A stretch of 64,000 nt of DNA from Candidatus Rifleibacteriota bacterium (GCA_018818125.1 JAHISQ010000120.1:4658-68657); one strand, 5' to 3'; numbered from the stretch's first letter, positions 9,210 to 30,735 are shown. Program-made: numbers and translations. The notes: a model not told the origin generated them from the letters alone.

Positions 9210-9212
9210 TCT

Positions 9213-11458: not shown

Positions 11459-12004
11459 GTGATGGAACTACCAGATAAAGAATTAATCGAAAAATGTCTC
11501 TCAGAGAATTCAGACTACTTCCGTTTTCTCGTCAGACGTTATGAGAAGCCATTGTTTGCATATTTGCTTGGAAGGTTGAAAAATCGTCAGCAGGCCGTCG
11601 AAGCTGCGCAAGAGGCTATGGTCAGGGCATATATGGGACTATCTAACTTGAAAAAGCCTGAATCATTTCATTCATGGCTAATTGGTATTGGGGCGAGAGT
11701 AGCCTTAGAGTTATTTCGCACTAACCAGCGTGATTCAAGAAACACGAATGAGATTGAAGGTTTTGCTGCAGAAAGAGTCGGAGATGTTGAAGATTTTAGA
11801 ATTGATGAAGTGATAGCCGAATTGCCTGAAATTCAACGACAGATGATTTTATTGCGCTATTACGAGAGCTATTCATGCCTGGAGGTTGCTGAACTTTTGC
11901 AGATACCGATTGGAACGGTTACCAAGACACTTTCCCGGGCTTACGCAACTTTGAGACAAAAGCTCAGTGTAACTTCCCCGGAGCTTTTGGAGGCTTTATC
12001 ATGA
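11459..12004 (+). CDS. ECF sigma-70 factor
   Basis: Region 2 (LVRRYEKPLF...SFHSWL) and region 4 (LPEIQRQMILLRYY...IPIGTVTKTLSRA); start is GTG 11459 or ATG 11462. Confidence 0.93.
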   Translation: MMELPDKELIEKCLSENSDYFRFLVRRYEKPLFAYLLGRLKNRQQAVEAAQEAMVRAYMGLSNLKKPESFHSWLIGIGARVALELFRTNQRDSRNTNEIEGFAAERVGDVEDFRIDEVIAELPEIQRQMILLRYYESYSCLEVAELLQIPIGTVTKTLSRAYATLRQKLSVTSPELLEALS

Positions 12005-13350
12005 ATTGCAATGAATGTCAGGAATATATGGTGGCTCACCTTGAGGGAGCACTGGAACAAGAAACGGATCTTGCCTGGAAGAAACATCTCAGTGAATGTG
12101 ATGACTGCAAAGAAATTTTGCAGTCGTTTCAGGAATTAGAATTTGAACTTAAGAAACGCGGGCCCATAACGGCAGACGTGTCGTTGGTGAATCCTGTAAT
12201 GGACAGGATCAAGCGTATTGAGGTGAACAAACAATCTCAAGAAACTGAAAGGAGCACGTTTATGAGCAGACTTCTTAAGTGGCGCTGGTCAATGGGAGTT
12301 GGGGCATTTGCCGGCATGGCTTTGCTCATTCTTCTGGTGGTATTTCCGGGAACAAATAACATTGCTGCTGCGGCTGAGGCAATTTCAAGAGGAGTAAAGG
12401 CTATTGGCAAACTTACAAGTATTCATCTGAAAGGAAAGCTGCGCACTCTGCCGCGCGATAATTTTTCCTCTATTGCCCCTGACCAGGAGTTTGTCGACAT
12501 CGAATTGTGGAAGGAATTCAAGCCCGCTGTAAAATGGAAAGTGGAAAAGCCAGGAAGAATCGCGGCAATGAATGGTGAGACAACTATACTTTTTATTCGG
12601 CCAGATTATGCATATAAAATTCCTGAACCAACCAGAAGCGCTTTTGATACCGGATGGCTTCTTCAGATCGCTGATATTTCAGGATCATTGAATGAAGAAT
12701 TGAAAACCATAGAAAAAAATGGTTTGAAAACAAAGGTAGAGCATATTAAAGATGCCTCCGGCAATCCGAAAACAGAGGTTACAGTAGAGGTAAAATCTGC
12801 CTACAGCGGTGATGATTTTCTGAAGAACACATTTTTCTGCACTGCTGACACGCGTCGGGTATATGTTTTCGATGATCAGAGCGGCTTGCTGACCGCTGCC
12901 AGAATCTATCTTGAAGGCTGGACGGATTCTACGCTTTTATTCGAGCTTTCACAAATCGATTACGATCCTGAATTTGCTTCAGAAACCTTTCAAATAGATC
13001 TTCCTGAAGATGTCACCTGGGACAGGTCGGGAGATATATTGCCAGACAATAAAAAATATGAGGCTATGAGCTCAGAAGAAGCAGCCCGCACTTTTTTTGA
13101 AGCTTGTGGTCGCGAAGATTGGGAAGAGGCAGGAAAGTTTGACACCATAACCACTTCCTTCAAAACCTATTATGGTGGCATTAAAATTATCAGTCTGGGC
13201 GAGCATTTTACTGGAATGATTTCCCTAATCAATGGTGATGAATTTGTTCCTTACGAAATTGAGCTAAGAGATGGCACCAAACGGAAACATAATATTGCTC
13301 TGAGGCGCCATCAGACAACAAACCGCTGGTTTGTTGACGGCGGGATCTAA
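12001..13350 (+). CDS. Zinc-finger (ZAS/zf-HC2) anti-sigma factor with a large extracytoplasmic domain
   Basis: N-terminal MNCNEC...HLSECDDC (HxxxCxxC), one TM helix, ATGA coupling to the sigma gene. Confidence 0.85.
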   Translation: MNCNECQEYMVAHLEGALEQETDLAWKKHLSECDDCKEILQSFQELEFELKKRGPITADVSLVNPVMDRIKRIEVNKQSQETERSTFMSRLLKWRWSMGVGAFAGMALLILLVVFPGTNNIAAAAEAISRGVKAIGKLTSIHLKGKLRTLPRDNFSSIAPDQEFVDIELWKEFKPAVKWKVEKPGRIAAMNGETTILFIRPDYAYKIPEPTRSAFDTGWLLQIADISGSLNEELKTIEKNGLKTKVEHIKDASGNPKTEVTVEVKSAYSGDDFLKNTFFCTADTRRVYVFDDQSGLLTAARIYLEGWTDSTLLFELSQIDYDPEFASETFQIDLPEDVTWDRSGDILPDNKKYEAMSSEEAARTFFEACGREDWEEAGKFDTITTSFKTYYGGIKIISLGEHFTGMISLINGDEFVPYEIELRDGTKRKHNIALRRHQTTNRWFVDGGI

Positions 13351-13372
13351 TCAATCGCTATTTTTGAATCTA

Positions 13373-13409
13373 AAGCATCCGAAGTTGGCTTAACCAGCTT
13401 TGGGTGCTT
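13373..13409 (+). terminator. Probable intrinsic terminator after the sigma/anti-sigma operon
   Basis: AAGCATCCGAAGTTGG pairs with CCAGCTTTGGGTGCTT (GU pairs allowed); a T-rich tail follows. Confidence 0.6.
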
Positions 13410-13581
13410 ATTCTCTGTCTTATCGCTTAACTGGTTCATAATAATGATAACATTCGCGCCACCGCGTTCCAGGTTTAGACAATACAACTGTGTAAAAAGT
13501 GGACTTTTGTGCGCCTTATACAGGATCTTTCTTCCCTGGTTAACGCCGCGAAAGGAAAAAATAGAAAAATATCGACGTATC

Positions 13582-13590
13582 TGCTAGAAT
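13582..13590 (+). promoter_or_regulatory. Extended -10 promoter element upstream of the ABC operon
   Basis: TGCTAGAAT (TGn + TAGAAT) 30 nt before the permease start; no strong -35. Confidence 0.4.
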
Positions 13591-13619
13591 TCACTTTGAA
13601 TCAATAGAGGGGGTGTATC

Positions 13620-14552
13620 TTGGCAGTTACAAGTTCAAAAGACACCGCGATTTCCTTTGGCTTTTTATCGCCGTTTCTGCTGTTTTTCGGCGTGTTCCTG
13701 ATCTTTCCGATCTTTTATTCGTTTTATCTGAGCTTTTTTGGCTCACCAACCGATTACAGCCTTGCCAATCTCGATTTTGTCGGCCTGAAGAATTACTTCA
13801 GAATCGCTACTGATGTGCAGTTCTGGTGGTCTTTGGGTGTTACCGCATTATACGGTATTCTCAGCATTCCGCTTGGCATCACGGCCTCGCTTGCTTTGGC
13901 ACTGCTGCTCGACAACAAGCTTTTTGGCAAAAGTTTTTTCAGAAGTGCTTTCTTTTTGCCCAACGTTCTTGACATGCTGGTAGTTGGTGTTATCTGGACC
14001 CTCATCTATGCTCCGCGTTACGGCGCCCTGGCACAGGTCACCACCTGGCTGTTCAGTGAAGACAATTTTTTCAACACAACCGGACTGCTTGGCAGTCCGA
14101 TGACCGCTCTGCTCGCTGTCGTTATTGCCATGGTGCTCAAGGGTGCCGGCTTCGGCATGGTGCTGTTTCTCGCAGCACTGCAGAATATTCCCGAAGCTGT
14201 TTACGAGGCCGCAGACATCGATGGCGCAACTGAATGGCAGAAATTCAAACACATCACAGTGCCGCTATTGCGCCCGATCATCTTTTTTATGGTAATTACC
14301 GGGATTATCGCCTCGCTTAACGCTTTTACCGAAATTTACGCAATGACTGCAGGTGGCCCCCAGGTCGTAATTGCCGGTGAAACTGTCGGTTCGACTTCGG
14401 TTGCCGGTTACTACCTGTTCAAGCAGTTTGATGCCGGCAACTACGGCTACGCTGCCGCCATCTCGTACATGCTGCTTATTATCACGCTTGGTATAACCTG
14501 GCTGCAGCAGTGGCTGCTCAACCGTGGCAGTGCCCCGGAGGTAAAGAAATGA
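13620..14552 (+). CDS. Carbohydrate ABC transporter permease
   Basis: FVGLKNY, EAA loop [22 protein letters not shown]. Confidence 0.93.
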
Positions 14553-15739
14553 CCAGCTTAACTGCTCTCTCACCCCACGAAACACACTCAGCTAAAGTTG
14601 GCCGGGTTTTGTATTTCGTTCTTCTCGTTGCCATAATGATTTCGATGTCGTATGTGATCTCGGGTCAGCTCTTCAAATTCGCGGTAATGGCCCTGTCGGC
14701 CTATGTTGCCCCGGAGGGCGCCACTGCCGTCGCTGAAGCGAGCAAACTGATGAGCAGTATGACAGTTGTACATAATGGTTTGGCCGTGGTGTTGACCATA
14801 GTTCTCACCATAATTGTTGTTCGCAAGTTTATCAACACCGGTCATGTGCATCGCATGGCTTTTCTACACCGCATGGTGCTTTATCTTGCGCTGATTGTCG
14901 GTGTGGTTGTGGTGCTTTTTCCCTTTTTCTGGATGCTCTGCACTGCCTTCAAACCCTCGGGCCAGGAGCTGGTGATAAGTAAGACCAACCCGTTTGACAT
15001 CGTGCCTTCTGAGCCAACGCTTGATAACTTCAGGCGCGTGCTCAAAATCGACGCCGCATCAAAAGCCATGGCAGCCGTCGATGCAATTGAGCAGAAGAAA
15101 AACTTTGGCACCTTTTTTCTCAACAGCCTGCTGGTAGCTACCACGGCTGCTTTCATGGTTACCTTTTTTGCTGCGATGGGCGCTTACGTTTTCTCGAAAA
15201 AGCAGCTGCCTTACAAACAGCAGATCTTCATGCTGCTGCTTGCTACCATGATGATTCCCGGCATGATGTTCATGGTTCCGCAGTTTTTCATGGTTTGCAA
15301 GATGGGCCTGTTCGGAACCAAATGGGCGATGTTTCTGCCGCATCTGGCGTCGGTCTTTGGCATTTTCATGCTTAAACAGTTCATGGATACCATACCAGAT
15401 TCACTGATCGAAGCGGCTCAGATTGATGGCGCTTCTGAGTGGCAGGTATTCAGAGTGGTTATCGTGCCGCTGGCGTTTCCGATTATTCTGACTCTGTTTT
15501 TGTTGACCTTTCTGTTTCACTGGTCAAACTTTCTCTGGCAGCTTATTGTCACCAACTTTGAGAATCCGCTAAGTATTACATTGCCAGTTGGCCTGGCGCT
15601 GTTTCGTGGCCAATATACCTCTGAACTGGGTCTGATCATGTCTGCTTCGTGTTTCTCAATCGTGCCGATTGCCGTGCTGTTTTTGTTTGCGCAGCGCTAC
15701 TTCATCGCCGGCATGACTCAGGGCGCGGTCAAGGAATAG
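14549..15739 (+). CDS. Carbohydrate ABC transporter permease with N-terminal extension
   Basis: ATG 14549 overlaps the previous stop; [43 protein letters not shown]. Confidence 0.92.
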
Positions 15740-15749
15740 GAGAAATACC

Positions 15750-17027
15750 ATGAACGAAAGAAAGCTTATAGTCGTTGCGGTTATCGCCTATCTTGCACTG
15801 GTTTTTGTCTGCTGGGATGACTCGATCACCAGCAGCCCCGATGGTCGCAAAATTCTTACTTTCTGGCATACCTACAACGACCAGGAAGAGCAGGTTCTGC
15901 GCAGTATAATCAAAGACTGGGAAACCGCCAACGCGAGTTTTACTATTCGCCCGGTTCGCATACCCTTCGATGGCCACAAAGCCAAGCTCAGAACCGCTTT
16001 GACTGTTGGACAGGGCCCAGATATGGCTCGTGTCGACTGGTCTTTTGTCTGCGAACTTGCTCGTAAAAATTCAGTAATCGACCTCGAAACCCTCGGCTTC
16101 GAAAAGATTCGAGATCAGTATTTGCCGGCTCCGCTTAAAAGCGCCTTTATTGACGGAAAATACTACGGAATCCCGGATCAGAGCACCTGTGTGGCGATGT
16201 TCTACAATCGTCAGATGTTCAAAGCTGCTGGCCTGATCGGACCTGCCGAAGAAGACCAGAATAAAGTCGAAGAAGTAGTATTGCCAAAGACCTGGGAAGA
16301 ATTCATTGAAGTCGGCAAAAAGCTCACTGATAAATCAAAAGATCAGTATGCCTTTGCCATGACCAATACCCTCTGGTGGAATCTGCCATTTTTCAACAGT
16401 TATGGTGCCCGCATCGTTTCTGAAGACGGCAAAAAGTGCGTCCTCGACTCAGACTCGGCAGTGCAGGCCCTCGAAATGATGGCCTCGCTGGTCAATGAGC
16501 ACAAAATCGAAGCTGGCGCGTGGCGGCCGGGTGCAATTTCCCCGGAACAGGGCTTTGTTAACGGCAAATATGCGATGGTTTTTATGGGTCCCTGGAACCT
16601 TGCCAAATTCGCTACCGCTAAAATGGATTTCGGCGTCGGGTTGATCCCTGGCGGAACTGCTGGCACCTCGACCAACGTTGGCGGAACTGATGTCGTAATT
16701 TTCAAGGGCACCAATTATGCGGCCGAGTGCTACGATTTTTTGACATTTTTTACCAGTGCCGAGAACCAGAAAACGTGGTGTACTGAGCTCAATCAGTTGC
16801 CTATCAATCTTGGCGCTTACGATCTTGTCAGCTTCGATGATCCCAACCTGAGGGTGTTCATGGAACAGATGAAGCACGCCGGCCCCAACCCGGTAGTCAA
16901 AGACTACGCTTTGCTCGAAGATCTTATTAACCCCGAAGTTGAAGCGGTGCTCTCAGGCCAGAAAACTGCGCGCGAAGCACTCACTACTGCTGCAAAGAAG
17001 GTTCAAGAGCGTCTGATCGACTTGTGA
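15750..17027 (+). CDS. Carbohydrate ABC transporter substrate-binding protein
   Basis: LTFWHT, GPDMARVD, YGIP...MFYNRQMF, PKTWEEF, GKYAMVFMGPW. Confidence 0.92.
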   Translation: MNERKLIVVAVIAYLALVFVCWDDSITSSPDGRKILTFWHTYNDQEEQVLRSIIKDWETANASFTIRPVRIPFDGHKAKLRTALTVGQGPDMARVDWSFVCELARKNSVIDLETLGFEKIRDQYLPAPLKSAFIDGKYYGIPDQSTCVAMFYNRQMFKAAGLIGPAEEDQNKVEEVVLPKTWEEFIEVGKKLTDKSKDQYAFAMTNTLWWNLPFFNSYGARIVSEDGKKCVLDSDSAVQALEMMASLVNEHKIEAGAWRPGAISPEQGFVNGKYAMVFMGPWNLAKFATAKMDFGVGLIPGGTAGTSTNVGGTDVVIFKGTNYAAECYDFLTFFTSAENQKTWCTELNQLPINLGAYDLVSFDDPNLRVFMEQMKHAGPNPVVKDYALLEDLINPEVEAVLSGQKTAREALTTAAKKVQERLIDL

Positions 17028-17129
17028 ACTAAATATTGAAAACTGTTTTTTTGTTGAAAGCCGTATCAAATGGCAGACTCTGGTAGCCATTTGCTGAATA
17101 CTTTTTTCAGCATAGTCAGGTAAAAACTT

Positions 17130-18011
17130 GTGGACATTAAAACGCTTTTTATATGCAATGCGTCCATAGTTCTTTTTATGGCTTCGGCTTTTTTGTTTTA
17201 CAGGGTCAACTATAAAACTTATCCGGGCTATGGAAGCTGGCTTTGTTCTCTTTTTGCCATGGCGATCGGTTATTGTTCAATCATTTTTCGTGAAACAATG
17301 CCTACTGCATTAGGTATTGGATTGACGAATGTCGCGTTTATTTCTGTTGGAGTTTTTCGCCTGGATGCCGTCAAGAGATTTACGCAGGGGCAAGAACTTA
17401 AAAAAGTGTATTATCTTCTCCCCGTTGCGGTGCTTCCATTCGCAATGTATTTTTATCTTGTCAAAGATGCCATAATCATTCGCACCTTCTTTACAAGCTT
17501 GTTTCTGGCATTACCGGCTTTACTCATCAGTGCAGAACTCTATAAAAACAGAAACAGAGAAAATAGTAATCTCTTCTTGGCCATTGCTGGATTAAATGCA
17601 TTCAATGTTTTGCTCCTTATGCTTCGTGCAATCATCGGGCTTTCAAGCACAAATGCCACTTTGTTTTCAAGCGAAAAAATTCACCAGATTTATTTTCTGG
17701 CAGTAATTGTTATAGAGGTTGGAGTCGGAATTGCCTGGTTGATGATGAACAACCAGCGCCTTGAAGTAGAGTTGCGAGCATCACGGGACAGTCTGCAAAC
17801 AACAAATACTGAGCTTGAAAAGGCGCTGTCAGAGGTTAAGGCGTTGAGCGGAATAATTCCGATATGTATGCATTGCAAAGAAATCAGAGACGATAAGGGT
17901 TACTGGAATCAGCTTGAAACATTCATTTCAAGACATTCCGAGGCTAAATTCAATCATAGTATCTGCCCGAGATGTCTGAAAGAAAAATATCCGGATTTGG
18001 ATGATGACTGA
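17130..18011 (+). CDS. Multi-TM membrane sensor with coiled coil and C-terminal Cys/His module
   Basis: About seven hydrophobic helices, coiled coil, then IPICMHCKEIRDDKGYW...HSICPRC. Confidence 0.8.
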   Translation: MDIKTLFICNASIVLFMASAFLFYRVNYKTYPGYGSWLCSLFAMAIGYCSIIFRETMPTALGIGLTNVAFISVGVFRLDAVKRFTQGQELKKVYYLLPVAVLPFAMYFYLVKDAIIIRTFFTSLFLALPALLISAELYKNRNRENSNLFLAIAGLNAFNVLLLMLRAIIGLSSTNATLFSSEKIHQIYFLAVIVIEVGVGIAWLMMNNQRLEVELRASRDSLQTTNTELEKALSEVKALSGIIPICMHCKEIRDDKGYWNQLETFISRHSEAKFNHSICPRCLKEKYPDLDDD

Positions 18012-18049
18012 TTCAGTTAATCTGCTATAACATGCGCCGCGCGCTGTGA

Positions 18050-18451
18050 TTAAGCTGATCGATATTTTAGCTGCAGCTCCTTAATCCAGCAATAGCCGAC
18101 CGGCACCACAAAGAGTGTCAACAGTTCGACGCACATGCCGCCAAAAGTCGGCACTGCCATTGGTATCATCACATCGATGCCTATGCCGGTGAAAACCAGG
18201 AAAGTTACTGGCACAGAAGAGAATTCAAGATAAAGGATCAGAGAGATTATCAACAGGCTCAGTGGCAAAACCACTATCAGTTTGTTTTCTGAGCGAACCT
18301 GATTCTGGTAGTTGCCGATGAATTTAAAACCGGTGTTTGCTGGCAATTTAAGGCTGCCCTCGGCGATTCTGCGTTTCAGGCAGACATCAGCTGCCTCAAC
18401 TACATCTGTCTCGGCGTATTCGGGCATTTTATCGAAAATGGCATAGCCGAC
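18050..18451 (-). pseudogene. Diverged, internally deleted copy of the cusA 3' region
   Basis: 18066-18176 matches 22460-22570 and 18177-18451 matches 22919-23193; 348 nt (116 codons) are deleted at a CGCCT microhomology. Confidence 0.92.
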
Positions 18452-18452
18452 T

Positions 18453-18493
18453 CTGCTGCAAAGAAAGTTCAGGAGCGTCTGATCGACTTCTAA
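18453..18493 (+). repeat. Second copy of the 3' end of the sugar-binding protein gene
   Basis: 18453-18489 equals 16987-17023 at 35 of 37 nt, both changes synonymous; reads AAKKVQERLIDF* versus AAKKVQERLIDL*. Confidence 0.92.
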
Positions 18494-18526
18494 AGCTCTT
18501 CATAGGCTTTAAAAAGGTATAAATTA

Positions 18527-18556
18527 ACAATCCCCGCCAAATCTGGCGGAGATTGT
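18527..18556 (+). terminator. Stem-loop behind the displaced SBP 3' end (terminator or stabiliser)
   Basis: ACAATC-C-CCGCCA / TGGCGG-A-GATTGT with a 4-nt loop; no clear U-tract on the + strand. Confidence 0.45.
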
Positions 18557-18715
18557 CAGCTAAGCAGGAGTTTGCCAGTTATTCAAGTGTTTTAACGAAC
18601 ACGGTTTATGATATGCTGGATTAATAGAAGAGCTGCTTAGGATTGGGTTAGAAAATTTGTGAAAATGTTGTTGTCCAGCTGGATTTAATGCTTTGATAGT
18701 TACACAGGATGTGAA

Positions 18716-21700
18716 ATGATTGAGACCATTGTTGCGAATGATGACTTTTACTTTTTTGCCCTTGGTTTTATTTTTCTGCTCGCTTTTTTCAATTGTCAGG
18801 TTCTGAAAAAAATACTGTCAGATAAGCTTGCCTGGATATTTCTTTCGTTATTTTCTTTGTCTCAATCTGCGTATTTTGGTTTAAATCTGATTCAACAGTT
18901 CAAAAATGTTTCATCAAATTTTGATACTATCAGCATCTTTTTTTCGGCTCTTTCGTTCAGCTTTCTTGGAGCTTTCGCCTTAAACATACATGACCATAAT
19001 GGAGAATTGCCAAAAATAAGAAAATGGTTTTTTATCCCTTTGATAGGAGCAGGGACTGGTTTTCTGTATAGTCTGGATGTCTTTGCCTATTCGCAGGCTG
19101 TTTTTATTGGATTTCCAGCTATCTTTGCTGCGTCTTATGTTTTTATCAAGAGAACAGTCTATAAAACAAGGCTTATGTGTCCCTGGCAAAAAGCCACCGG
19201 AGTTTCTCTGGTTGTTTATAATGCTGTTGGCTTGCTGGTTGATGTGGGACTTATAAACCCAGGTTCTTCAGCTGAAACAGGCAGTAAAATTTTTCTCTCT
19301 GCTCTATTTCTTATTTCGCTTTGGTTTTGCTCAAGAATTGCTACAGAGGAAGAGATTTTGCCTGAATTGGAGAATAGTCAGAAAAGTCTCAGGTTTTTTC
19401 TTCCGGTATCCCTGCTGATTGTTCTTCCATTAGGTTACATGTTTTCTATTTTTATTTCTGAGCGTAATTTTAATCAGGAAAAAATGATCAAGAAGAGTCA
19501 GGGAAATGCTTTTGAATCGCTTTTAGAAGTGAATTTTGCCCATTCTGATCTGGTGGCAGAGGGAATGAGCCGATCTTCTGTTTTGGCAGAAGCCCTTTCC
19601 AGACCTTGTTCTGAGACGATTGATATGGCTAATGCCGAAATAGACAGGTTCTCGAGTCCGTTTCCACGCTCGGTAGCTTATTTGCTAGATCTTAATGGAA
19701 ATACTATTGTTTCTTCAAATAGGAATTCAGACCAATCTTTTGTTGGTAAAAACTTTTCCTTTCGCCCATATTTTAAAGGGGCTCGCGCAGGACAAACTTC
19801 GTTCTATTTAGCAAGAGGAACGGTCTCAAAAGAATATGGCTGTTACTGCGCTTATCCGGTCAGAGTAGATGGCGGTTCCGTTCTAGGAGTAGTGGTCTAT
19901 AAGAACACCATGGAAAATGTTGTTTCTCATTTTGCTGATCAGCCTGCAACTGTTTTACTTGATGACAAAGATGAAATCATAGCCTCTAATCGACCAGATG
20001 AGTTTTGGAGCAAATTATTTCCAATTGATAAGACCAGTTTTATTTCGTTTGCTGATATCAGTTCCTTCAGATTGCCTCTTAAGTTGAGCTACAGACCCGT
20101 TTTATCCAAAGAATCAATTGCTGGATACGAAAAGAATCTTTTTCTGTGGCGCTATAATCTTGATGTCTCAGACTGGTCTTTTTATTTGCTGGAAGAATCG
20201 GCTTCTTCGCTATGGTCAAGACTTCTTGGGATAAGCTTAACCTTGCTTGCCTGCCTGGTATTGATAGTAATTGCCATTATCTGGAGCTTTTCTCTTACCA
20301 CTGTTCGGGTAATAAAAAAGAGTGCCAGAGTTTATCATACACTGGTGGAAGGCTCTTCGAATATTGTCGCGCTAATGGATATTTCTGGTCAATTTATTGC
20401 TCTAAATGAAGCTGGTAAAAATGAGTTTCAGTTGACCGATGAATCGTTCTCTGAAGTAAGACTTCCTGACCTTTGGGATGATGACTCTGTCAGCAAGGTT
20501 CGCTATGCCATACAGGAGACTGTAACCGAAAAAAAGGTGTTTTTTGAGGCATCAAGATCAAATGCAGAAGGTCAGGTTGGATATTGGGAAATAACTCTTA
20601 ATCCTATTGTTGGGACAAAATTCCGACCAAGCCAGCTGATTGGTATCTTTCACAATATAAGTGCCAGAAAGCTTGCTGCGAAAGAGTTGAATCGCGAAAA
20701 AGAATTTACGGCTAACCTTCTCAATACTGCTCAGGCAATCATTTTGTTTCTGGATATGACTGGAAGAGTAAAAAGAGTAAATCAATATTTTTATGATTTA
20801 ACCGGCTTCAAAAAAGAAGAGGTGATTAATAAAAACTGGTTAGAAGCTTTTGTTCCTGATTCTTGCAAAACAAACATTAGTAAGTATTTTAGAGAACATT
20901 CAACAAACCTTAGTGAAGAGCCAGTTATAAACGATATACTTAAGGCCAATAGTGAAACTCTGAAGGTTGAATGGAAAAATCGTACTCTTCTTGGCGATGA
21001 CAGAGAGCCTGTCGGGGTAATTGCAGTAGGCCAGGATATTACGGAACATACAAAGATTGAGGATGCTCTTAGAGAGGGCAAGACAAAGTTCGCCATGTTG
21101 AATAATTGTTTTATAAAATTTGGTAACTCTCCCAGAGAGAATATCAATCTCCTGACTGATATGGCCTGGTTGCTGACCGGTTCAGACATTGCTATGGTGA
21201 GAGAAATTGATGGTGATGAGTTCAATATGCTTAGCCTGTCGTCTATGTCTGAGGAACTCAGTTCGCAACAAGCTGCTTCAGGCATGATTGAAAGTTGTCC
21301 TTTCAGTTCAGAAATTGCAAAAATTGGTAAATCGCCAATTTTAATTAAAAATATTTCCAAATACGATTTTAATTCCAGCTGGATACAGACTTTTAATTCA
21401 ATGATTGTATGTGCTATTTACCTCGGAGAAGAAATAACAGGCTGTCTTATGTGCTGTTTTGAAAAGACGGTAGATGCATTGATTGAAGAAGATCTTGAAC
21501 TTATAAACATTGTCGCCAGGGCCATTGGAATAGAAATAGCCAGGTTGCGAGAAGATCGCCATTTGCGCCAGGTTATTGAAGAACTTGCTTCTAAAGACAA
21601 GAGAATGTCGCTGGAAATGGAAATCGCGCGGACTGTTCACCGTGCATTTTTGCCGTCGAAAAGTCCAGAGTTTTCGCCCTACAGGATCGGATTTGTGTTT

Positions 21701-22345
21701 AAGCCATGTTTCAGTGTTGGCGGCGATTTTTTTGATTTTGTTGCATTTCCGGAAAAAAACCAGCTGGGCATACTTTTTGCCGATATAAGCGGCCATGGAG
21801 TTGCGGGCGCGCTTTTGGCATCAATGTTGAAGGTTCTTCTGACGTCAGTAACCTTACATAATAATGAGCCAGCCAGCATTCTTTATGATATGAATGGCCG
21901 GATTGAAGAGAGTTTTCCTAGTGGCTATTTTGTCGCTGCCTTTTTTGCTGTTCTTGACAGTACATCTGAGTCAATTACATTCGCCAGCGCGGCTCCTGAG
22001 CCGGTTCTTCTTCTCAAAAAAAGCGGTAAAGTAGAAAAAATTGGCGACGGCGGGCAACCGATGGGGCTGCTGCCAGCGGAATTTACTGATGAAGAAAGCT
22101 TTGTGTCTGTGTCAGTTAAAATGGAACCTGGTGATATGCTGATATTTTTTACCGATGGTATAACTGATATTAAGATCTCTGAGAATGAGAGAATAGGCGT
22201 TGACCGTCTTTGCGATTGGGTCTCCGAGCTGTCAGGGTCATCGGCACAGGATCTTAGTGAAGAGATTTATCGTCGAGCAATTGCTGCTGCCATAGAAAAT
22301 GGTATTGATGACGACATAATGATTTTAGCCATAAAAAGAGAATAG
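18716..22345 (+). CDS. Membrane sensor phosphatase: multi-TM, Cache, two PAS, GAF-like, SpoIIE/PP2C
   Basis: GKNFSFRPYF Cache motif; two PAS-like segments; GGDFFD, DISGHG, FTDG, DDDIMI. Confidence 0.9.
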   Translation: MIETIVANDDFYFFALGFIFLLAFFNCQVLKKILSDKLAWIFLSLFSLSQSAYFGLNLIQQFKNVSSNFDTISIFFSALSFSFLGAFALNIHDHNGELPKIRKWFFIPLIGAGTGFLYSLDVFAYSQAVFIGFPAIFAASYVFIKRTVYKTRLMCPWQKATGVSLVVYNAVGLLVDVGLINPGSSAETGSKIFLSALFLISLWFCSRIATEEEILPELENSQKSLRFFLPVSLLIVLPLGYMFSIFISERNFNQEKMIKKSQGNAFESLLEVNFAHSDLVAEGMSRSSVLAEALSRPCSETIDMANAEIDRFSSPFPRSVAYLLDLNGNTIVSSNRNSDQSFVGKNFSFRPYFKGARAGQTSFYLARGTVSKEYGCYCAYPVRVDGGSVLGVVVYKNTMENVVSHFADQPATVLLDDKDEIIASNRPDEFWSKLFPIDKTSFISFADISSFRLPLKLSYRPVLSKESIAGYEKNLFLWRYNLDVSDWSFYLLEESASSLWSRLLGISLTLLACLVLIVIAIIWSFSLTTVRVIKKSARVYHTLVEGSSNIVALMDISGQFIALNEAGKNEFQLTDESFSEVRLPDLWDDDSVSKVRYAIQETVTEKKVFFEASRSNAEGQVGYWEITLNPIVGTKFRPSQLIGIFHNISARKLAAKELNREKEFTANLLNTAQAIILFLDMTGRVKRVNQYFYDLTGFKKEEVINKNWLEAFVPDSCKTNISKYFREHSTNLSEEPVINDILKANSETLKVEWKNRTLLGDDREPVGVIAVGQDITEHTKIEDALREGKTKFAMLNNCFIKFGNSPRENINLLTDMAWLLTGSDIAMVREIDGDEFNMLSLSSMSEELSSQQAASGMIESCPFSSEIAKIGKSPILIKNISKYDFNSSWIQTFNSMIVCAIYLGEEITGCLMCCFEKTVDALIEEDLELINIVARAIGIEIARLREDRHLRQVIEELASKDKRMSLEMEIARTVHRAFLPSKSPEFSPYRIGFVFKPCFSVGGDFFDFVAFPEKNQLGILFADISGHGVAGALLASMLKVLLTSVTLHNNEPASILYDMNGRIEESFPSGYFVAAFFAVLDSTSESITFASAAPEPVLLLKKSGKVEKIGDGGQPMGLLPAEFTDEESFVSVSVKMEPGDMLIFFTDGITDIKISENERIGVDRLCDWVSELSGSSAQDLSEEIYRRAIAAAIENGIDDDIMILAIKRE

Positions 22346-22434
22346 CTTCAAGAAATCAAAAAGCGTAAATTGACAGCTTTCTAAGCCTGATGGCGTTCGA
22401 GTAGCACATCAATGTTTTGCTGTTTAAGTGATGG

Positions 22435-25400
22435 CTATGTTGTCTGTTTGGCCTCGAGTTTCAGGCGCAACTCTTTGATCCAGCAGTAACCGACCGGCAC
22501 CACAAAGAGTGTCAACAGTTCGACGCACATGCCGCCAAAGGTCGGCACTGCCATTGGTATCATCACATCGGCGCCTCGGCCGGTCGAGGTTAAAACCGGT
22601 AATAACGCAAGAATGGTGGTTGCTGTTGTCATCAGACACGGTCGGATTCTTTTTAAGCCGGCTTCGAGAACAGCTGCTCTGATCTGTTTAATATCGTTGG
22701 TGTCATTTTTTTCAAAAGTGCTTTCAAGATACGATGCCATGACCACGCCATCATCGCTGGCTATGCCAAACAGCGCAATGAACCCGACCCACACGGCAAT
22801 AGAAAGATTCATCGAATGCATATTCAGCAGTTCACGAAAGTGTATGCCGAACAGCGAGAAGTTGAGGAACCATCCTTGCGAATACAGCCAGATCATCAAA
22901 AAGCCACCGGACCAGGCGACGCCTATGCCGGTGAAAACAAGGAAAGTTACTGGCACTGAAGAGAATTCAAGATAAAGAATCAGAAAGATTATCAACAGGC
23001 TCAGTGGCAAAACCACCATCAGCTTTTTTTCTGAACGCACCTGATTCTGGTAGTTGCCGATAAATTTATAACTGGTATTTGCCGGCAATTTAAGGCTGCC
23101 CTCGGCGATTTTGCGTTTCAGATAGACGTCTGCTTCCTCAACTACATCTGTCTCGGCGTATTCGGGCATTTTGTCGAAAATGACATAGCCGACCGGAAAA
23201 GAATTTTCGCTTTTGAGCACCTGTGGGCCCTTAACAAACGAAATGGTCGTGAGGTCGCCTAACGGAATGAACTTTTTATCAGGAGTCGCGACCGGAATGT
23301 TTCTGATGAGTTCAGGATTATCGCGTAACTCTCGGGCAAATCTCAGCCTGATGCCGTATCTTTCGCGGCCTTCGAATGTCTGAGAAAGAACTTTACCGCC
23401 CAGGGAGATTTCGATCACATTTTGCAGATCGGCAACCTTGATTCCATATCTTGCGGCTGCCTGGCGATTAACTTCAATCTCGATGTATGGCTTGCCAACG
23501 ATACGGTCAGCAGAAACTGTGCTGGCATCAATTCCCTGAATCTGTTTAAGCTCCTTTTCAAGAGCGAAACCTAATTCTTCAACTGATTGAGTGTCAGGGC
23601 CAAATATCTGAATCCCCATCGGTGCTCTGATACCGGTTTGCAGCATTACCAGTCTGGCAGCAATTGGCTGTAGCATCGGCGCCGAGGTTGTACCCGGGAC
23701 TGAACTGGCGCGCACAATCTCTTTCCAGATATCTTTCGGAGATTTTATCTGGTCTCGCCATTGTCGTTTTCTAAGCCCGGTTACCGGGTCTGGTTCGCTG
23801 TATTCCGCGACATAAGAAATTACCGTCTCAATCATCGAAATTGGTGCCGGATCAAGTGGCGAATCAACTCGACCAATCTTTCCAACCACCGATTCGACCT
23901 CGGGGATTGCTCTAATAGCTCTATCCTGTTTGCTGAGAACGTCAATACATTCAGCCAAGCTGGCGTGGGGCATGGTAGTGGGCATCAAAAGGTAACTGCC
24001 CTCATCAAGTGGTGGCATGAATTCTTTGCCCAGCCCAGGAAAGACTTGAACACCTTTTTTCCAGGCCCAGGAGTTGGTGATTAGTTCCGAAGAGATGCCC
24101 GTTTTTGCCAGCAGATCCGGCATCCATGAGTTAATTCTGGCAAAACCGAGCCAAACGTGAAGCCCAAATAGAACTACCATAATTGGAATGATCGCAAAGG
24201 TTTTCTTGTTATCGAGAAACCATGACAGCATGCTTCCGTAGTAGTTTAAAAATAGTCTGAAAAAAACAAGAACTGAACCTGTGGTGACAACTACCGCTAT
24301 GAGGTTGAAAAAGTAGCCACGACCAAAACCAAGAGGCATCCAGATCCAGGTTAGATAAAGAGTAGCCGCAACTGCAAACATAACTGGAGCCCATTTGTTT
24401 GAAAAGGTGCGGATCTTTTCTGGTATTTTGCCCCAGAAAATACCGGTTAACCCTGCAAAAACAAGAATAATACCGGCTTTAGGTGCGAAGAACGTTAGCA
24501 GAATACCAGAGATGAGAATTGCAAAAAATCTCAGGTCACGAGTTTTATCTTTCTTTTTGAATATAACGGTTGCGGCAACTGGAATGAGAATCAAGGCTAT
24601 GAACAGCGAAGAAATCAGCGCGAAGGTTTTGGTCCAGGCGAGCGGGGAAAATAGTTTTCCCTCGGCACCGGTCATGGCAAACACTGGCAGGAAGCCAACT
24701 ATGGTAGTAGATACGGCGGTGATAACGGCAGAACCAACCTCGGAGGCTGCGTTGAATATTGACTCCTTTGCAGGGATATCGGTTTCAGAATCCTTTTCAA
24801 GGTGTTTGAGGATGTTTTCGCAGAGAATAATGCCCATATCAACCATGGTGCCGATTGCAATGGCAATGCCCGCCAGTGACATCAGATTAGCCCCGACGTT
24901 GAAAAACTTCATGGCAATAAAAGTCATGAGAACCGCTAAGGGCAAAAGACCTGAGATAAGCAGGCTTGAACTCATATGAAGCAGCATGACAATTACCACC
25001 AGAATGGTAATAGTTATCTGTTGTGATAGCGCGTCCTGCAGTGTTTGTAGAGTTTCGTTTATCAGTTTGGTTCGGTCATAGAAAGGAACTATTTTAACCT
25101 GGCTCAAACTGCCATCAGCAAGAGTTTTTGCTGGCAACCCATGCGAAATTTCAGTAATTTTATGCTTAACTTTTTCAATAACTTCCAGCGGGTTTGCGCC
25201 AAATCTGGTTACAACCACTCCGCCAACTGCTTCGGCCCCTTCCTTGTCGAGAACGCCACGTCGTCTCGCCGGCCCGGAAACCACTCTGGCAACATTTCCG
25301 ATGGTAATTCCAACGCCGTTGACTGACTTGATTACCGAGTTTTTCAAGTCTTCAATTGATTTTATAAAGCCGATACCGCGGATTACATATTCTACCCGGT

Positions 25401-26094
25401 TAATTTCTATCGTACCGGCTCCGACATCGAGATTACTCTCTTTGATAGTTTTAACCAGTTCAGGAATCGTAATATTGTAAATTCTCAACATCTCAGGATC
25501 AATGTCGACCTGGTATTCACGAACCATTCCACCAATTGAACCAACTTCTGAGACGCCATCTACCGACTGCAGGGCGAACTTTATGGTCCAGTCCTGAATA
25601 CTCCTGAGCTCGTGCAGATCAAAGCCTTTGCCTTCGACGGTATACCAGAAAATCTGGCCAAGTGCGGTTGCATCCGGGCCCAGCACGGGAGTAACGCCAT
25701 CGGGAAGACTGCCCTTTATAGACGCGAGCTTTTCAATTATTCGCGAACGGGACCAGTAAAAATCGATTTTTTCGTTAAAAATAATGTAGATCGAGGCGAA
25801 TCCGAACATTGAGCTGGCCCTGATTGTAGAAACACCAGGAATGCCCATTAAATTCACTGCCAATGGGTAAGTTATCTGGTCATCAACATCTTTTGGCGAT
25901 CTACCTGGCCAGGAGACAAAGACTATCTGCTGATTTTCGCCGATATCCGGTATCGCGTCCACCGACACCGGGTCTCTTATTATGCCGGTGTTAAAGTCAA
26001 ACGGGATGACCGAAAAGCCGTAACCAGCAAGCATTACCAGTAAAATGGCCGCAATAATGCGTTTTCTCAGAAAGAATCTAATTATTGCGTCCAT
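22435..26094 (-). CDS. cusA: Cu(I)/Ag(I) heavy-metal efflux RND permease
   Basis: DAIPDIGENQQIV, GPDATALGQIF, GTMVDMG, ASDDGVVM, RIRPCLMT; Met residues in LLMPT, PISMIET, LVMLQTG contexts that match the CusA Met triad. Confidence 0.93.
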   Translation of the reverse strand: MDAIIRFFLRKRIIAAILLVMLAGYGFSVIPFDFNTGIIRDPVSVDAIPDIGENQQIVFVSWPGRSPKDVDDQITYPLAVNLMGIPGVSTIRASSMFGFASIYIIFNEKIDFYWSRSRIIEKLASIKGSLPDGVTPVLGPDATALGQIFWYTVEGKGFDLHELRSIQDWTIKFALQSVDGVSEVGSIGGMVREYQVDIDPEMLRIYNITIPELVKTIKESNLDVGAGTIEINRVEYVIRGIGFIKSIEDLKNSVIKSVNGVGITIGNVARVVSGPARRRGVLDKEGAEAVGGVVVTRFGANPLEVIEKVKHKITEISHGLPAKTLADGSLSQVKIVPFYDRTKLINETLQTLQDALSQQITITILVVIVMLLHMSSSLLISGLLPLAVLMTFIAMKFFNVGANLMSLAGIAIAIGTMVDMGIILCENILKHLEKDSETDIPAKESIFNAASEVGSAVITAVSTTIVGFLPVFAMTGAEGKLFSPLAWTKTFALISSLFIALILIPVAATVIFKKKDKTRDLRFFAILISGILLTFFAPKAGIILVFAGLTGIFWGKIPEKIRTFSNKWAPVMFAVAATLYLTWIWMPLGFGRGYFFNLIAVVVTTGSVLVFFRLFLNYYGSMLSWFLDNKKTFAIIPIMVVLFGLHVWLGFARINSWMPDLLAKTGISSELITNSWAWKKGVQVFPGLGKEFMPPLDEGSYLLMPTTMPHASLAECIDVLSKQDRAIRAIPEVESVVGKIGRVDSPLDPAPISMIETVISYVAEYSEPDPVTGLRKRQWRDQIKSPKDIWKEIVRASSVPGTTSAPMLQPIAARLVMLQTGIRAPMGIQIFGPDTQSVEELGFALEKELKQIQGIDASTVSADRIVGKPYIEIEVNRQAAARYGIKVADLQNVIEISLGGKVLSQTFEGRERYGIRLRFARELRDNPELIRNIPVATPDKKFIPLGDLTTISFVKGPQVLKSENSFPVGYVIFDKMPEYAETDVVEEADVYLKRKIAEGSLKLPANTSYKFIGNYQNQVRSEKKLMVVLPLSLLIIFLILYLEFSSVPVTFLVFTGIGVAWSGGFLMIWLYSQGWFLNFSLFGIHFRELLNMHSMNLSIAVWVGFIALFGIASDDGVVMASYLESTFEKNDTNDIKQIRAAVLEAGLKRIRPCLMTTATTILALLPVLTSTGRGADVMIPMAVPTFGGMCVELLTLFVVPVGYCWIKELRLKLEAKQTT

Positions 26095-27971
26095 TATTTA
26101 ATCTCTTTATTCCAGATTTTTTTGGTGGATCCGCATTTGAGCATCATTTTGCCAAAATAAGGGTTGGCCAGTTGTGGGGCAGATTGAAGCCAGATTGCGC
26201 CTTTATTATCGAAAGCCATGGGACAAAAATTTTCCTGAACTGCAAAACTCAATTTGCCATCTACCATAATGATGAGATTTTTTAACACCGCAGTGAGCTT
26301 AAAAAGCTCTTCTCTGGCCATTTTAATGTCCTTGTCTGCGGCCAGTTTCATTAAAATCGGCATCAGTTGATCGGCTACGAGAGACAGTGATTTTACCGAA
26401 GCTTTTTTTAAACCTGGAAGCTGTTCATGTGCCTTCGTTGCAGCGGCCACGGTTGCCTCCAGATCGTCTTCTGCAAGCTTTTCGGAGATTACGAGACAGT
26501 CTTTTACAAGCGTTTCAACGATTCTCAGGTTTTCTTCGGAAAGTTCTTCGCCGGGTGTCTCAGGAGCTTTTGGCGCCGAAGTGTCACGATGTGGGCTCAT
26601 CATACTGTTTTGCCCGCGGATCTGTTGCTCCGAATCAATTTTGAAGGCCCCTTCTACCACAACCCGATCGCCCTTTTCCAAACCCGAATACACGAGATAA
26701 CCAGAATCTACACGCGATCCGACCAGTACTTCTACGGTTTCGTAGGCGCCTTTTTCGCCGACAATTTCTCTGAACACAAGGGATCTTGGACCACTCCAGA
26801 GAACTGCACTTTCAGGAATAATCAAAGGTAATTTGCCATTACTGGCAGTTTTAACTCCCATGCTTTCTATTGGCACCAGATCCATTCCGCAAACATCACA
26901 TTGGCCCGGGCCATCTTTTATCACTTCCGGATGCATTGGCGATATCCATTTGCCGGCCATGGCTGGACTAATTACCTCGCCGTTGCTGCCAATGGATACC
27001 TTTATGGTTACCCTGCCGAACATTCCGGGTTTCAAGAGGCCATTGCTGTTTTCAATGTTAATTCTGGCGTCGACTGTTCGGGTCTCACCAGACAGAATCG
27101 GAGAAATAAAAGATATTGTGCCCGGAAAAATTTTGCCGGGAAACGCTTCAAACTCGCATTCAACCGCCTGACCGTATCTGAGCCATTGAATGTCACGTTC
27201 GTAAACCGATGCAATCAGCCAAAGATGGTTCACGTCAGCAATTGAAAACATCCTTGTGCCCTGATTTACATACATTCCTTCTTTTACTGCCTGCTCTATC
27301 ACGATGCCAGCGCTTGGCGAATTAATGGTAACAAGTTCAGAGGGTGATTTTTTTGCATTAAACATTTCAATCTGTTGAGCGGAAATGCCCCAGCGCAGCA
27401 GGCGCTCAATCACTGCCTTGTGCAAGCTGTCGTTACCGGCAGATCTGATCAATTCTTCCTGGGCGGCGATCAGGTCTGGACTGTAGAACTCTGCCATGTG
27501 ATCGCCCTGTCTGACCGGAATTCCGGTGTAGTTGACATACAACTTTTCAATTCTGCCACCTACCCAGGCAGTAACATGTTTAACTCTGGTTTCATCAAGT
27601 TTAACCGTGCCCGGCAATCTGATTGTTTGTGTAGCAAGGCCCGAAAAAACTTCTGTGGTTCTGACCTCGGCAAGTTCTTGAGCAGTTTCAGAAAGTGTTA
27701 AGACGTTCGGAGCACCTGAATCTGTGCTTTGATTAAGCAGGATGAGGTCCATAAAACAGATGGGACATTTACCGGCACTGGGTTTTCTTATTTGCGGGTG
27801 CATTGAGCAGGTCCATGTTTCGGCCTTGTGTTCCTGGTGACCTGCTTTTACTGCTGGATCTGTCGTGGTCATATCGTTGGCGAAAAAAAAGTAGCCTGCT
27901 ATTATGCCGGCAAGAAAAACAGCCAGAGCGGGCACTAACAAAGTCTTTTTCTCAATCCGATTAAATTTCAT
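26094..27971 (-). CDS. cusB: Heavy-metal RND periplasmic adaptor with metal-binding domains
   Basis: WTCSMHPQ...CPICFMDL, second SPMHP...CDVCGMDL, barrel/hairpin core, C-terminal FCPMAFDNKGAIWL...NPYFG domain. Confidence 0.9.
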   Translation of the reverse strand: MKFNRIEKKTLLVPALAVFLAGIIAGYFFFANDMTTTDPAVKAGHQEHKAETWTCSMHPQIRKPSAGKCPICFMDLILLNQSTDSGAPNVLTLSETAQELAEVRTTEVFSGLATQTIRLPGTVKLDETRVKHVTAWVGGRIEKLYVNYTGIPVRQGDHMAEFYSPDLIAAQEELIRSAGNDSLHKAVIERLLRWGISAQQIEMFNAKKSPSELVTINSPSAGIVIEQAVKEGMYVNQGTRMFSIADVNHLWLIASVYERDIQWLRYGQAVECEFEAFPGKIFPGTISFISPILSGETRTVDARINIENSNGLLKPGMFGRVTIKVSIGSNGEVISPAMAGKWISPMHPEVIKDGPGQCDVCGMDLVPIESMGVKTASNGKLPLIIPESAVLWSGPRSLVFREIVGEKGAYETVEVLVGSRVDSGYLVYSGLEKGDRVVVEGAFKIDSEQQIRGQNSMMSPHRDTSAPKAPETPGEELSEENLRIVETLVKDCLVISEKLAEDDLEATVAAATKAHEQLPGLKKASVKSLSLVADQLMPILMKLAADKDIKMAREELFKLTAVLKNLIIMVDGKLSFAVQENFCPMAFDNKGAIWLQSAPQLANPYFGKMMLKCGSTKKIWNKEIK

Positions 27972-27986
27972 TCTATCTGGCCCCGC

Positions 27987-29375
27987 TTAAAATTGGATTT
28001 TGCCAATATCATAAAGCATGTCTGCTTTGGCTTTGAGGGTGGCGAATTCAGAATCGATAAGCTTTTCTCTCAGATTCAGGAGTCGCTTTTCAGTTTCAAC
28101 CAGTTCCTGAAAGCTGGCTTGTCCGCTTTCATATTTTGATTTTACGCTGGCAAAAGCCTTTTCAAGCTCTGGCAGCATTTGAGCTCTGATAATCTGCAGA
28201 TTCTTTCTGTTGCGCTGAAAAGATTCAAGGTCGCTGGTATATTGCGCCTGCAGTGCCAGTCTGGTAGAAGTTACTGTTTCTGATTGTGCCTGTTTTCGTG
28301 CTTTGATCTGCTCAACGAAAACCCGGTTGAATTCAATTTTTGAGTCAACCTGAGGCATACCGGCTGAGGCTGTAGCTGACATGCCTTTTTTCATCGGCAG
28401 TTGAGCTGTGCTCGTATATTCGGGAAAAGCCATTCTCTGAACCAGTGCAATTGAATCTTCGAGCCGGCTCAGTCCGATTTTTTCTGCGCTTAAACCCGGG
28501 TGATCAGCGAATTCGAGATTGTTCGACCAGCTTAAAGTTGCAAAATCAGAAGTAAGAAAGCCGCTGAAATTCAGTACCGGCCGCTTTCCATCGAGCAGCG
28601 TGAGCGCTTTTTCCTGCTGCTCCTTTAACATCGTCTGATACTGATTCTTCTGAGTCTCAAGTCGCCCGGCCTCAATCGAGATCATGGTCAGCTCTGGGAA
28701 AGAAATCTTTCCATTGCGATAGAGAGAGTCTGAGGTTGTCTTGAGATCATTGTAGAGATTGATTGTTTTATCGAGCAGAGTCAGTTTTTTGCGGGCTGCA
28801 ATGATTTGATATGCTGTAATTCTGGCCTGTCGGGCCAGTCCGGCAAGAAAGTTGTCAAGCCTTGCGCTGGCTTCGTCGCCGATTGATTCTGCTATCCTTG
28901 ATTTGATTGCCGACACACCAGGAAACGGATGCTCTTTAAAAAGTGGTGTCAATGTCGGCGATTGGCTCATAAAAGCCGAAAACTGATTAAGCAGAAGCTC
29001 CAGTGCTTGAGTTTGCGACAGATTGTATCTGGCTGCGACAAGCATCTGCTTTTGTTTGCGGGCTTCCGGAGCAAGCGTCAGGGCAGCTCGGGCAAAGTCT
29101 TCAGGCGTCGCGATTGCCAGTAATGCTGAAGATTGCGCGTCTGCGGTATCGTTGCTAATCTGGCCTGATCGCTTTTCTGAGCTGATTGGAACTGCCTGAG
29201 TCTTGTTGGTAAGACCCGGAAAGTCGCTGTTAAAAGTGCTTTTGCTCTCTTTGGCAGGTTTGTAGCTTTTCAAAACGTCGAGTTGCTGGCGGTAAAATGT
29301 GCTTGCAGGCATTGGCTCAGCAAAACCCGGCAGATTGAGGCAGAACAGGGCAAGAATTATCGTAGTTTTTCTCAT
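27987..29375 (-). CDS. TolC-like outer membrane efflux protein (divergent)
   Basis: Signal peptide, helical repeats, C-terminal KYESGQASFQELVETE; within the cus operon. Confidence 0.75.
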   Translation of the reverse strand: MRKTTIILALFCLNLPGFAEPMPASTFYRQQLDVLKSYKPAKESKSTFNSDFPGLTNKTQAVPISSEKRSGQISNDTADAQSSALLAIATPEDFARAALTLAPEARKQKQMLVAARYNLSQTQALELLLNQFSAFMSQSPTLTPLFKEHPFPGVSAIKSRIAESIGDEASARLDNFLAGLARQARITAYQIIAARKKLTLLDKTINLYNDLKTTSDSLYRNGKISFPELTMISIEAGRLETQKNQYQTMLKEQQEKALTLLDGKRPVLNFSGFLTSDFATLSWSNNLEFADHPGLSAEKIGLSRLEDSIALVQRMAFPEYTSTAQLPMKKGMSATASAGMPQVDSKIEFNRVFVEQIKARKQAQSETVTSTRLALQAQYTSDLESFQRNRKNLQIIRAQMLPELEKAFASVKSKYESGQASFQELVETEKRLLNLREKLIDSEFATLKAKADMLYDIGKIQF

Positions 29376-30670: not shown

Positions 30671-30735
30671 TTAATTCTCCATCCGCGAGAAACTTACTGA
30701 AATCTTATTATACTATTTCAGCTGCCAATGACGAG

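Follow-up and report, generated by a model that had tools for sequence, protein, structure and literature searches.

A 64-kb stretch of a Candidatus Riflebacteria genome (GCA_018818125.1, JAHISQ010000120.1:4658-68657; hereafter the window, with positions counted from its first letter) contains, twice and head to tail, a unit made of the 3′ end of a gene for an ABC-transporter substrate-binding protein (SBP), a sensor-like gene and the 3′ end of the metal-efflux gene cusA, with a different sensor-like gene (cargo A, cargo B) in each unit. We favor, at a probability of roughly 0.55, an origin in which a diverged SBP-cusA interval was joined to the resident interval by a recombination event with one homologous and one non-homologous side, followed by decay of the redundant cusA end. 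What remains is one intact SBP gene, one intact cus operon, both cargo genes and two orphan pieces that meet at 18451/18453 (Table 1), and the net effect is two sensor-like genes at a place where related lineages have none. The original prediction, made from the sequence alone, had already described the doubled head-to-tail unit, the identities of its genes, the unrelated cargo between diverged flanks and the lack of a nearby integrase or transposase. All of these were borne out, by repeat alignments at the same positions, by Pfam, NCBIfam and sequence features, and by a Pfam scan of the main open reading frames (ORFs) of the window.

The SBP protein placed the window in Candidatus Riflebacteria: its orthologues there align with residues 1-425 and are 58-87% identical; all matches come from metagenome-assembled genomes or metagenome contigs. 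Scans for SBP relatives gave 16 loci in GTDB species genomes and 15 loci in JGI metagenomes, and we also sought protein homologues in a 5.8-billion-protein collection. Sampling of relatives is sparse, the closest available SBP being 87% identical at the protein level. Contigs or loci of relatives are given L-numbers, and the lineage of L034-L036 is called X; L001 and L002 are Logan contigs.

Table 1. Features of the doubled SBP-cargo-cusA region, in window coordinates.
Feature	Position	Strand	Description and basis
SBP gene	15750-17027	+	425 aa, intact; Pfam SBP_bac_8 and SBP_bac_1
Repeat copy a	16987-17028	+	SBP 3′ end (last 38 coding nt) including TGA stop, and one following base; repeat search, pattern search
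Cargo A (sensor A)	17130-18011	+	membrane protein, 293 aa; about 7 hydrophobic segments, coiled-coil linker, C-terminal CxxC...CxxC
cusA fragment, 3′-most segment	18065-18190	-	about codons 1168-1215; 89.7% identical to 22459-22584 over 126 nt, E=5e-42
cusA fragment, inner segment	18175-18451	-	about codons 968-1059; 91.7% identical to 22917-23193 over 277 nt, E=2e-110
Deletion scar in fragment	18175-18190	.	between imperfect direct repeats; two repeat families overlap here, spacings 4742 and 4394
Non-homologous junction	18451-18453	.	cusA interior (= 23193) to SBP 3′ end (= 16987); alignment
Repeat copy b	18453-18494	+	orphan SBP 3′ end; reads ...KKVQERLIDF, then TAA stop
Hairpin 3′ of copy b	18527-18556	+	6+6 bp stem, folding z = -2.2
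Cargo B (sensor B)	18716-22345	+	1209 aa; dCache-PAS-PAS-SpoIIE (PP2C phosphatase); Pfam
cusA, intact	22435-26094	-	1219 aa; TIGR00914, 775 bits
Rest of cus operon	26094-31143	-	cusB 26094-27971, 462-aa OEP-like gene, 432-aa OEP gene, 135-aa YHS/TRASH gene; Pfam

Two units with unrelated cargo

The intact SBP gene closes a permease-permease-SBP operon, and its 3′ end (copy a) recurs as an orphan beyond cargo A (copy b) at 90% identity, with 4 mismatches in 42 nt. A 35-nt core of this repeat, searched with up to 3 mismatches, occurs exactly twice in the 64 kb, against 0.00 expected from 100 shuffles; pattern search of the window yielded no third copy beyond the cus operon.

The 3′ end of cusA is likewise present twice. 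The resident gene holds both of the repeat copies listed in Table 1 together with 22585-22916, which is missing from the fragment. Within the fragment the two segments overlap by 16 nt, and their spacings to the resident copies differ by 348 nt, so that the fragment is 116 codons short, in frame. The deletion is flanked by imperfect direct repeats, GCGCCTCGGCCGGT and ACGCCTATGCCGGT, both encoding a TGxGxD-like motif; it is an addition to the earlier description, which listed the fragment as a cusA 3′ copy. A 125-aa ORF (18050-18427) still matches Pfam ACR_tran and TIGR00914 CusA/CzcA, an exact look-up of its protein returned no matches, and the 3′-most segment is 83% identical in amino acids to cusA by tblastn. 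Of the seven amino acid changes in the fragment, five fall on residues that are invariant in the 15 closest CusA proteins. Given these changes and the 348-nt deletion, the fragment is a pseudogene that has drifted for some time. Both orphan pieces, the SBP end and the cusA fragment, are probably without function.

Between these flanks the two units have nothing in common. The cargo genes are not related, mutual similarity among the four spacers is not significant (p ≥ 0.09), and homology between the units ends a few nucleotides from the SBP stop codon and about 10 codons from the cusA stop; a comparison seeking traces of an ancestral spacer around A and B found none. Simple tandem duplication in place would leave content and spacers shared by descent. 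Since the flanks are 8-10% diverged and both cargo and spacers are unlike, the two units are too different for a recent simple duplication.

Cargo A is predicted to be sensor-like from its sequence features, and it has no family match in Pfam or NCBIfam. For cargo B just two full-length homologues were found, 58% and 43% identical. Both genes are AT-rich relative to their surroundings: the GC content is 39-40% in cargo A and 36-41% in cargo B, compared with 45-51% in the flanks of the cargo genes and 49-51% in the SBP operon. Exact look-ups of the two cargo proteins returned only the source contig and one Logan run, and that of the SBP protein returned no matches. The top homologues of A and B, at 58% identity, lie in unrelated contexts and are uninformative on the donor.

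The C-terminal ~80 residues of cargo A (17751-17993) are 51% identical to the C-terminus (37107-37346) of a 626-aa double SBP_bac_3 protein encoded at 37092-38972. This module of coiled coil plus CxxC...CxxC has no Pfam or NCBIfam model and is found at the ends of REC, PAS, HAMP, Cache, GAF and DUF3365 proteins; the few matches that bear an organism name belong to Desulfobacterota or Proteobacteria.

The hairpin that the original prediction placed after the second SBP end does fold, but it has no T-run and is not a canonical terminator. We also considered an integron cassette array and rejected it, finding no integrase by Pfam and, with attC models not run, this hairpin as the only one, without a partner after cargo A. 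An Rfam search of 16500-23500 gave no matches at E ≤ 0.1. Among the 44 main ORFs of the window, Pfam detected no integrase, transposase, resolvase or recombinase domain, and 6 of the 44 had no family at all.

The junction in an independent assembly

At the junction, cusA homology stops at 18451 and SBP homology starts at 18453, leaving one unassigned base and microhomology of at most 3 nt. The Logan contig L002 (SRR6514274_122904) matches 18401-22519 at 100% and spans the junction; L001, from the same run (SRR6514274), matches 7130-18125 at 100%. Because cusA and SBP share no k-mer at this point and an independent contig crosses it, the junction is not a product of co-assembly of two strains. 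The two cusA copies have three exact runs in common, 18096-18145 (50 nt), 18244-18274 (31 nt) and 18394-18430 (37 nt), and the Logan contigs end exactly k-1 = 30 nt inside them, which is how a k=31 graph should treat a real repeat with diverged copies. Such a graph alone does not fix the path through the variant segments that lie between these runs; the runs, at most 50 nt long, are below ordinary read length.

Related loci

The permease-permease-SBP operon is kept in every species with enough flanking sequence, and the gene downstream of SBP varies. SBP has different genes after it at 13 further Riflebacteria loci, most often a homologue of 31259-34147, a HAMP-cyclase sensor gene that directly follows SBP in L005-L007, L019, L020 and L031; in L004 the next gene is an asparaginase homologue of 45052-46119. 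The HAMP-cyclase homologue also follows SBP in L029, behind an extra gene (844-1689) for a 281-aa multi-pass membrane protein unrelated to cargo A. The position right after SBP is therefore variable in other lineages too. Since the neighbors of SBP differ elsewhere, the segment 17028-31258, which comprises cargo A, the fragment, copy b, cargo B and the cus operon, is a lineage-specific insertion of about 14 kb relative to these species.

The cus operon (YHS, OEP, 462-aa gene, CusB, CusA) occurs in at least four different contexts across Riflebacteria, and in none of the 16 GTDB and 15 JGI loci, where SBP identity is nowhere above 87%, does it stand beside a full SBP gene. The three closest cus operons, in L034, L035 and L036, are collinear with ours across 22459-31151, and their CusA is 93% identical in amino acids; the resident CusA is likewise 93% identical to P0001-P0003 and of equal length. 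In all three loci an SBP 3′ remnant of about 115 nt lies convergent to cusA, 108 nt from the cusA stop, with no gene between. This remnant points to SBP and cusA having been neighbors in the ancestor of the clade, and in one lineage a piece of the SBP-cusA junction has since traveled with the cus operon. More distant cus operons that we examined lack the remnant. The 108-nt spacer contains a strong bidirectional terminator hairpin (z = -5.6). A single match to the L034 spacer in the spacer comparison (uncorrected p = 0.013) was dropped, as it fails correction for ten comparisons.

In lineage X the cus operon, spacer and SBP remnant form a module (L034 1673-10752; L036 1-9080, 97% identical; L035 1-8152) that is found in two contexts. 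In L034 and L036 it ends sharply, the two sequences being unrelated from about 15 nt past the remnant. On that side HicB follows in L034, and in L035 and L036 there are genes for a small histidine kinase and haem/TRASH genes. At the other end of the module L034 has an adjoining serine resolvase gene (1116-1676), with a RelE/helix-turn-helix toxin-antitoxin pair upstream. The last 30 nt of L036 match a stretch inside this resolvase gene; this end match, a single k-mer overlap, was the sole hint that L036 might be circular, and we did not accept it.

Three diverged versions of the interval

Within the final ~110 nt of SBP, bases that the SBP genes of other species lack (GCAAAGAA, CGTCTGATC) are common to copy a, copy b and the X remnants, and the three are about equidistant from one another (38/44). 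Copy b agrees with the L034-L036 remnants at 38 of 44 positions, and its CAG and TTC are shared with other SBP genes. Two of its four differences from copy a are synonymous, one gives the F of other species, and the stop is kept (TGA to TAA). For the cusA ends, with 379 alignable columns, the p-distance is 0.077 between fragment and resident, 0.10-0.11 between fragment and X, and 0.09 between resident and X. Both flanks thus appear, from these comparisons, in three diverged versions, namely copy a with the fragment, copy b with the resident cusA, and the remnant with the X cusA, two of which would now be in one genome. The clade had several diverged "alleles" of the SBP-cusA interval.

Exchange between such alleles has left a further trace. 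Against L034 (22435-31143 compared with L034 1855-10530), the synonymous divergence dS is 0.56 in cusA and 0.62 in cusB, rising to 1.2 in the 462-aa gene, 1.7 in the OEP gene and 1.1 in the YHS gene, and it is patchy within cusA and cusB as well. These steps along the operon indicate that it is a mosaic relative to L034 and that recombination with diverged alleles has happened at this locus.

The substitutions in the fragment bear on when its divergence arose. Synonymous divergence (pS) between fragment and resident is 0.20-0.34 and non-synonymous divergence (pN) 0.05-0.12. The pairwise pN/pS of 0.24-0.29 was not retained as a sign of purifying selection, the signal weakening once changes were polarized and a 13:1 transition bias was allowed. 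The fragment has 14 changes of its own, 7 synonymous and 7 non-synonymous, of which 13 are transitions; neutral drift would give a synonymous share of 23-34% depending on the transition bias (synonymous to non-synonymous about 1:2 to 1:3). The 7:7 ratio, together with the pattern in copy b, suggests that part of the divergence arose in working genes.

Origin of the arrangement

The relatives suggest an ancestral state in which a cus copper/silver efflux operon was convergent to the SBP gene. One copy of the interval between them would have carried cargo A, and another, about 8-10% diverged, cargo B. The head-to-tail linkage would follow if the homologous side of the exchange lay in either the cus or the SBP operon. 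Seen from the cusA side, an incoming 3′ end with cargo B and 42 nt of SBP would have displaced the old 3′ end with cargo A, and the redundant cusA fragment would then have decayed, losing 348 nt between short direct repeats and changing at conserved residues. Several routes are available: homology-facilitated illegitimate recombination (HFIR) of linear DNA; a circular molecule entering by one Campbell-type crossover in the 760-nt cusA end, with later deletion of the redundant part; or integration of a whole second operon followed by deletion. The linear and the circular or whole-operon routes are equivalent in outcome, giving identical maps. The event needs no recombinase, and none is present in the window.

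Several observations weigh against this origin. No crossover point can be located in the resident cusA and SBP genes, each of full length and collinear with relatives, and which unit is the resident one cannot be told either. A donor or recipient allele was never seen in the collections searched: neither SBP-A-cusA nor SBP-B-cusA occurs in the GTDB genomes, JGI metagenomes and protein collection named above. With L037 and L041 as outgroups, polarized sites give no sign that the fragment falls outside the resident lineage, about 3 supporting fragment with resident and 2-3 fragment with X; with patterns so nearly balanced, we abandoned tree placement of the fragment. The selection test on the fragment branch is weak, resting on 14 changes (P = 0.02-0.16, depending on transition bias). 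Finally, with its deletion and its altered invariant residues the fragment is not fresh, and it may have resided in place for long.

The original prediction had two strain alleles stacked in tandem by HFIR. The stacking gains from the third diverged version in L034-L036 and from the dissimilarity of the units; the expected relatives with only cargo A or only cargo B in this slot did not turn up, the closest homologues of both lying elsewhere, and divergence before the event is no more than suggested by the fragment. HFIR agrees with the one junction nearly without homology, as one of several routes. To call the place a variable sensor slot was an over-reading: in lineage X it is empty, holding no cargo between SBP remnant and cusA, and other species have different neighbors.

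The best-surviving alternative, possible although on balance unlikely, is a non-homologous duplication in place of about 0.9 kb, made up of the spacer with 42 nt of SBP and 760 nt of cusA, after which the copies diverged and cargo A and B entered or replaced the spacers independently. A tandem duplication with a single new junction would give exactly this map, and an "empty" unit of the right size exists in L034-L036. The decay of the fragment is real; the fragment is slightly nearer to the resident cusA than to X, above all in its 3′ segment, with distances of 0.059 and 0.118; and at high transition bias the neutrality test is compatible with drift. This explanation nevertheless requires two independent insertions into equivalent 100-nt spacers and the loss of every trace of homology between the spacers. 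Both the 42-nt orphan and the fragment, which is non-functional, would also have to survive a synonymous divergence of about 0.2-0.3, like that of species-level lineages, and drift along the whole branch would be expected to leave about 15-22 non-synonymous changes in the fragment rather than 7.

An assembly artefact or strain mixture, either a merger of an A-strain with a B-strain or a chromosome with SBP-A-cusA plus a 4.4-kb circle or variant population, is very improbable. The source assembly is of metagenome type, the breaks in the Logan graph fall at the three exact runs noted above, and a traversal into chromosome plus 4394-nt circle uses each segment exactly once. But an assembler could not create a junction that lacks a shared cusA/SBP k-mer and recurs in an independent contig, ordinary reads would resolve the shared runs, a 4.4-kb circle without a replication gene would not persist, and neither the deletion nor the junction makes sense in a working second-strain locus.

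We give equally little credence to a site-specific island with the 42-nt SBP-end repeats as attL and attR and the X module beside the resolvase as its mobile form: direct repeats made of a gene 3′ end are a classic integration signature, and the near-identical module with its sharp end, two contexts, adjoining resolvase and toxin-antitoxin genes would suit it, but the window has no recombinase (the resolvase is in L034 only), the repeats enclose just cargo A and a truncated cusA with neither the cus operon nor a complete element, copy b is cut at its left by cusA sequence rather than by an element end, no SBP-end copy lies past the cus operon, and the model would not explain why the fragment is homologous to the gene beyond cargo B.

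Relation to known systems

The feature is one more recombination relic of a type already known, here from an uncultured phylum and outside a toxin locus. Kirchberger et al. (2017, PMC5361080) proposed displacement of 3′ (C-terminal) ends, with the same architecture and mechanism, for effector-immunity arrays of type VI secretion and for rhs loci, and cite Jackson et al. (2009) on such arrays. In these arrays (rhs, contact-dependent inhibition (CDI), Vibrio cholerae type VI), as here, homology within a conserved gene portion anchors an incoming diverged module while its other end joins without homology, and the old 3′ end and downstream gene are pushed aside yet kept, leaving orphan 3′ fragments and stacked genes without an integrase. 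The anchor here, however, is a metal-efflux pump rather than a polymorphic toxin. The genes kept are sensor-like, not immunity genes, and there is no obvious selection for keeping the old one. Only a single round of stacking is visible, and a piece of the opposite flanking gene, SBP, came along.

HFIR in transformable bacteria is described by de Vries and Wackernagel (2002), Prudhomme et al. (2002) and Meier and Wackernagel (2003), as cited in PMC5361080 and PMC2884548, and it has also been invoked in the literature for dimorphic variable segments. HFIR shares with our region one homologous anchor, one junction with little or no microhomology, and the gain of foreign DNA without a recombinase. 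DNA uptake and a donor are putative in our case, and a circular intermediate with deletion gives the same result. Experimental HFIR events usually replace recipient DNA and are not known to leave a partial duplicate.

Tandem duplication with pseudogene decay would share the head-to-tail units, the single junction and the slippage-type deletion between short direct repeats in the truncated copy; a fresh duplication has identical units, in contrast to the differing cargo and spacers and diverged flanks seen here. In replacement-type flexible genomic islands, different cassettes between conserved flanking genes are exchanged by homologous recombination. Our region resembles them in its conserved flanks (SBP, cusA) and its unrelated content by lineage (empty, A or B), but two versions are in one genome instead of replacing each other, and adjacency of the flanks is limited to one clade.

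The region reveals no new mechanism or functional system. Its value is as a sequence-level record of gene gain without mobile-element machinery, in which one scar, two orphan ends and subsequent decay are all readable; it would extend the pattern of displacement and retention from toxin-immunity loci to ordinary transporter and efflux loci, and the cus operon of this clade moves between contexts with a piece of a former neighbor attached. That one-sided homologous recombination, leaving gene fragments and needing no recombinase, recurrently adds signal-transduction genes next to conserved operons in Riflebacteria, with the SBP remnant at the sharp end of the X module as a portable homology arm back to the SBP locus, is a speculation we regard as rather unlikely; the second orphan fragment of the window, described below, would be another instance.

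Other features of the window

Between the cus operon and the asparaginase gene, 31259-44979 encodes two HAMP-cyclase proteins (962 and 957 aa), the 626-aa protein noted above and two HAMP-SpoIIE phosphatases (970 and 971 aa); the members of each pair are only about 27% identical. This sensor-rich zone is variable, relatives keeping none of it (L004) or just the first two genes (L006, L007, L019).

A pseudopilin-like operon at 46734-55557 encodes four proteins of about 250-275 aa (one with an N_methyl motif), a 333-aa and a 1522-aa protein, with no other Pfam matches; it is apparently absent from L004, which has about 2.3 kb between the flanking homologues. The earlier suggestion that pilin operons in the window are compatible with competence comes down to this operon, and we saw no competence gene in the window.

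A second orphan gene fragment, about 100 nt of an extracytoplasmic function (ECF) sigma-factor gene, lies at 9190-9303, after the stop of a hydrolase gene and upstream of a Cache histidine kinase gene (9518-11299), which in turn precedes an intact sigma gene (11459-12004). The fragment is 64% identical in amino acids to residues 70-119 of the intact gene (88% over 73 nt, 9213-9285 to 11692-11764) and has an internal deletion of about 30 nt between GAAG(G/A)TTTT direct repeats.

Near the right end of the window, the convergent genes 60531-61637 and 61829-63940 enclose a 49-nt near-perfect palindrome (94%; 61688-61736), probably a terminator acting in both directions. At the left end, the cluster at 98-8112 encodes a ketoacyl synthase, two short-chain reductases, a nitroreductase, an acyl carrier protein, three radical SAM proteins (two with an HMPTM zinc ribbon, one B12-binding) and a methyltransferase, and it may represent a lipid or natural-product pathway.

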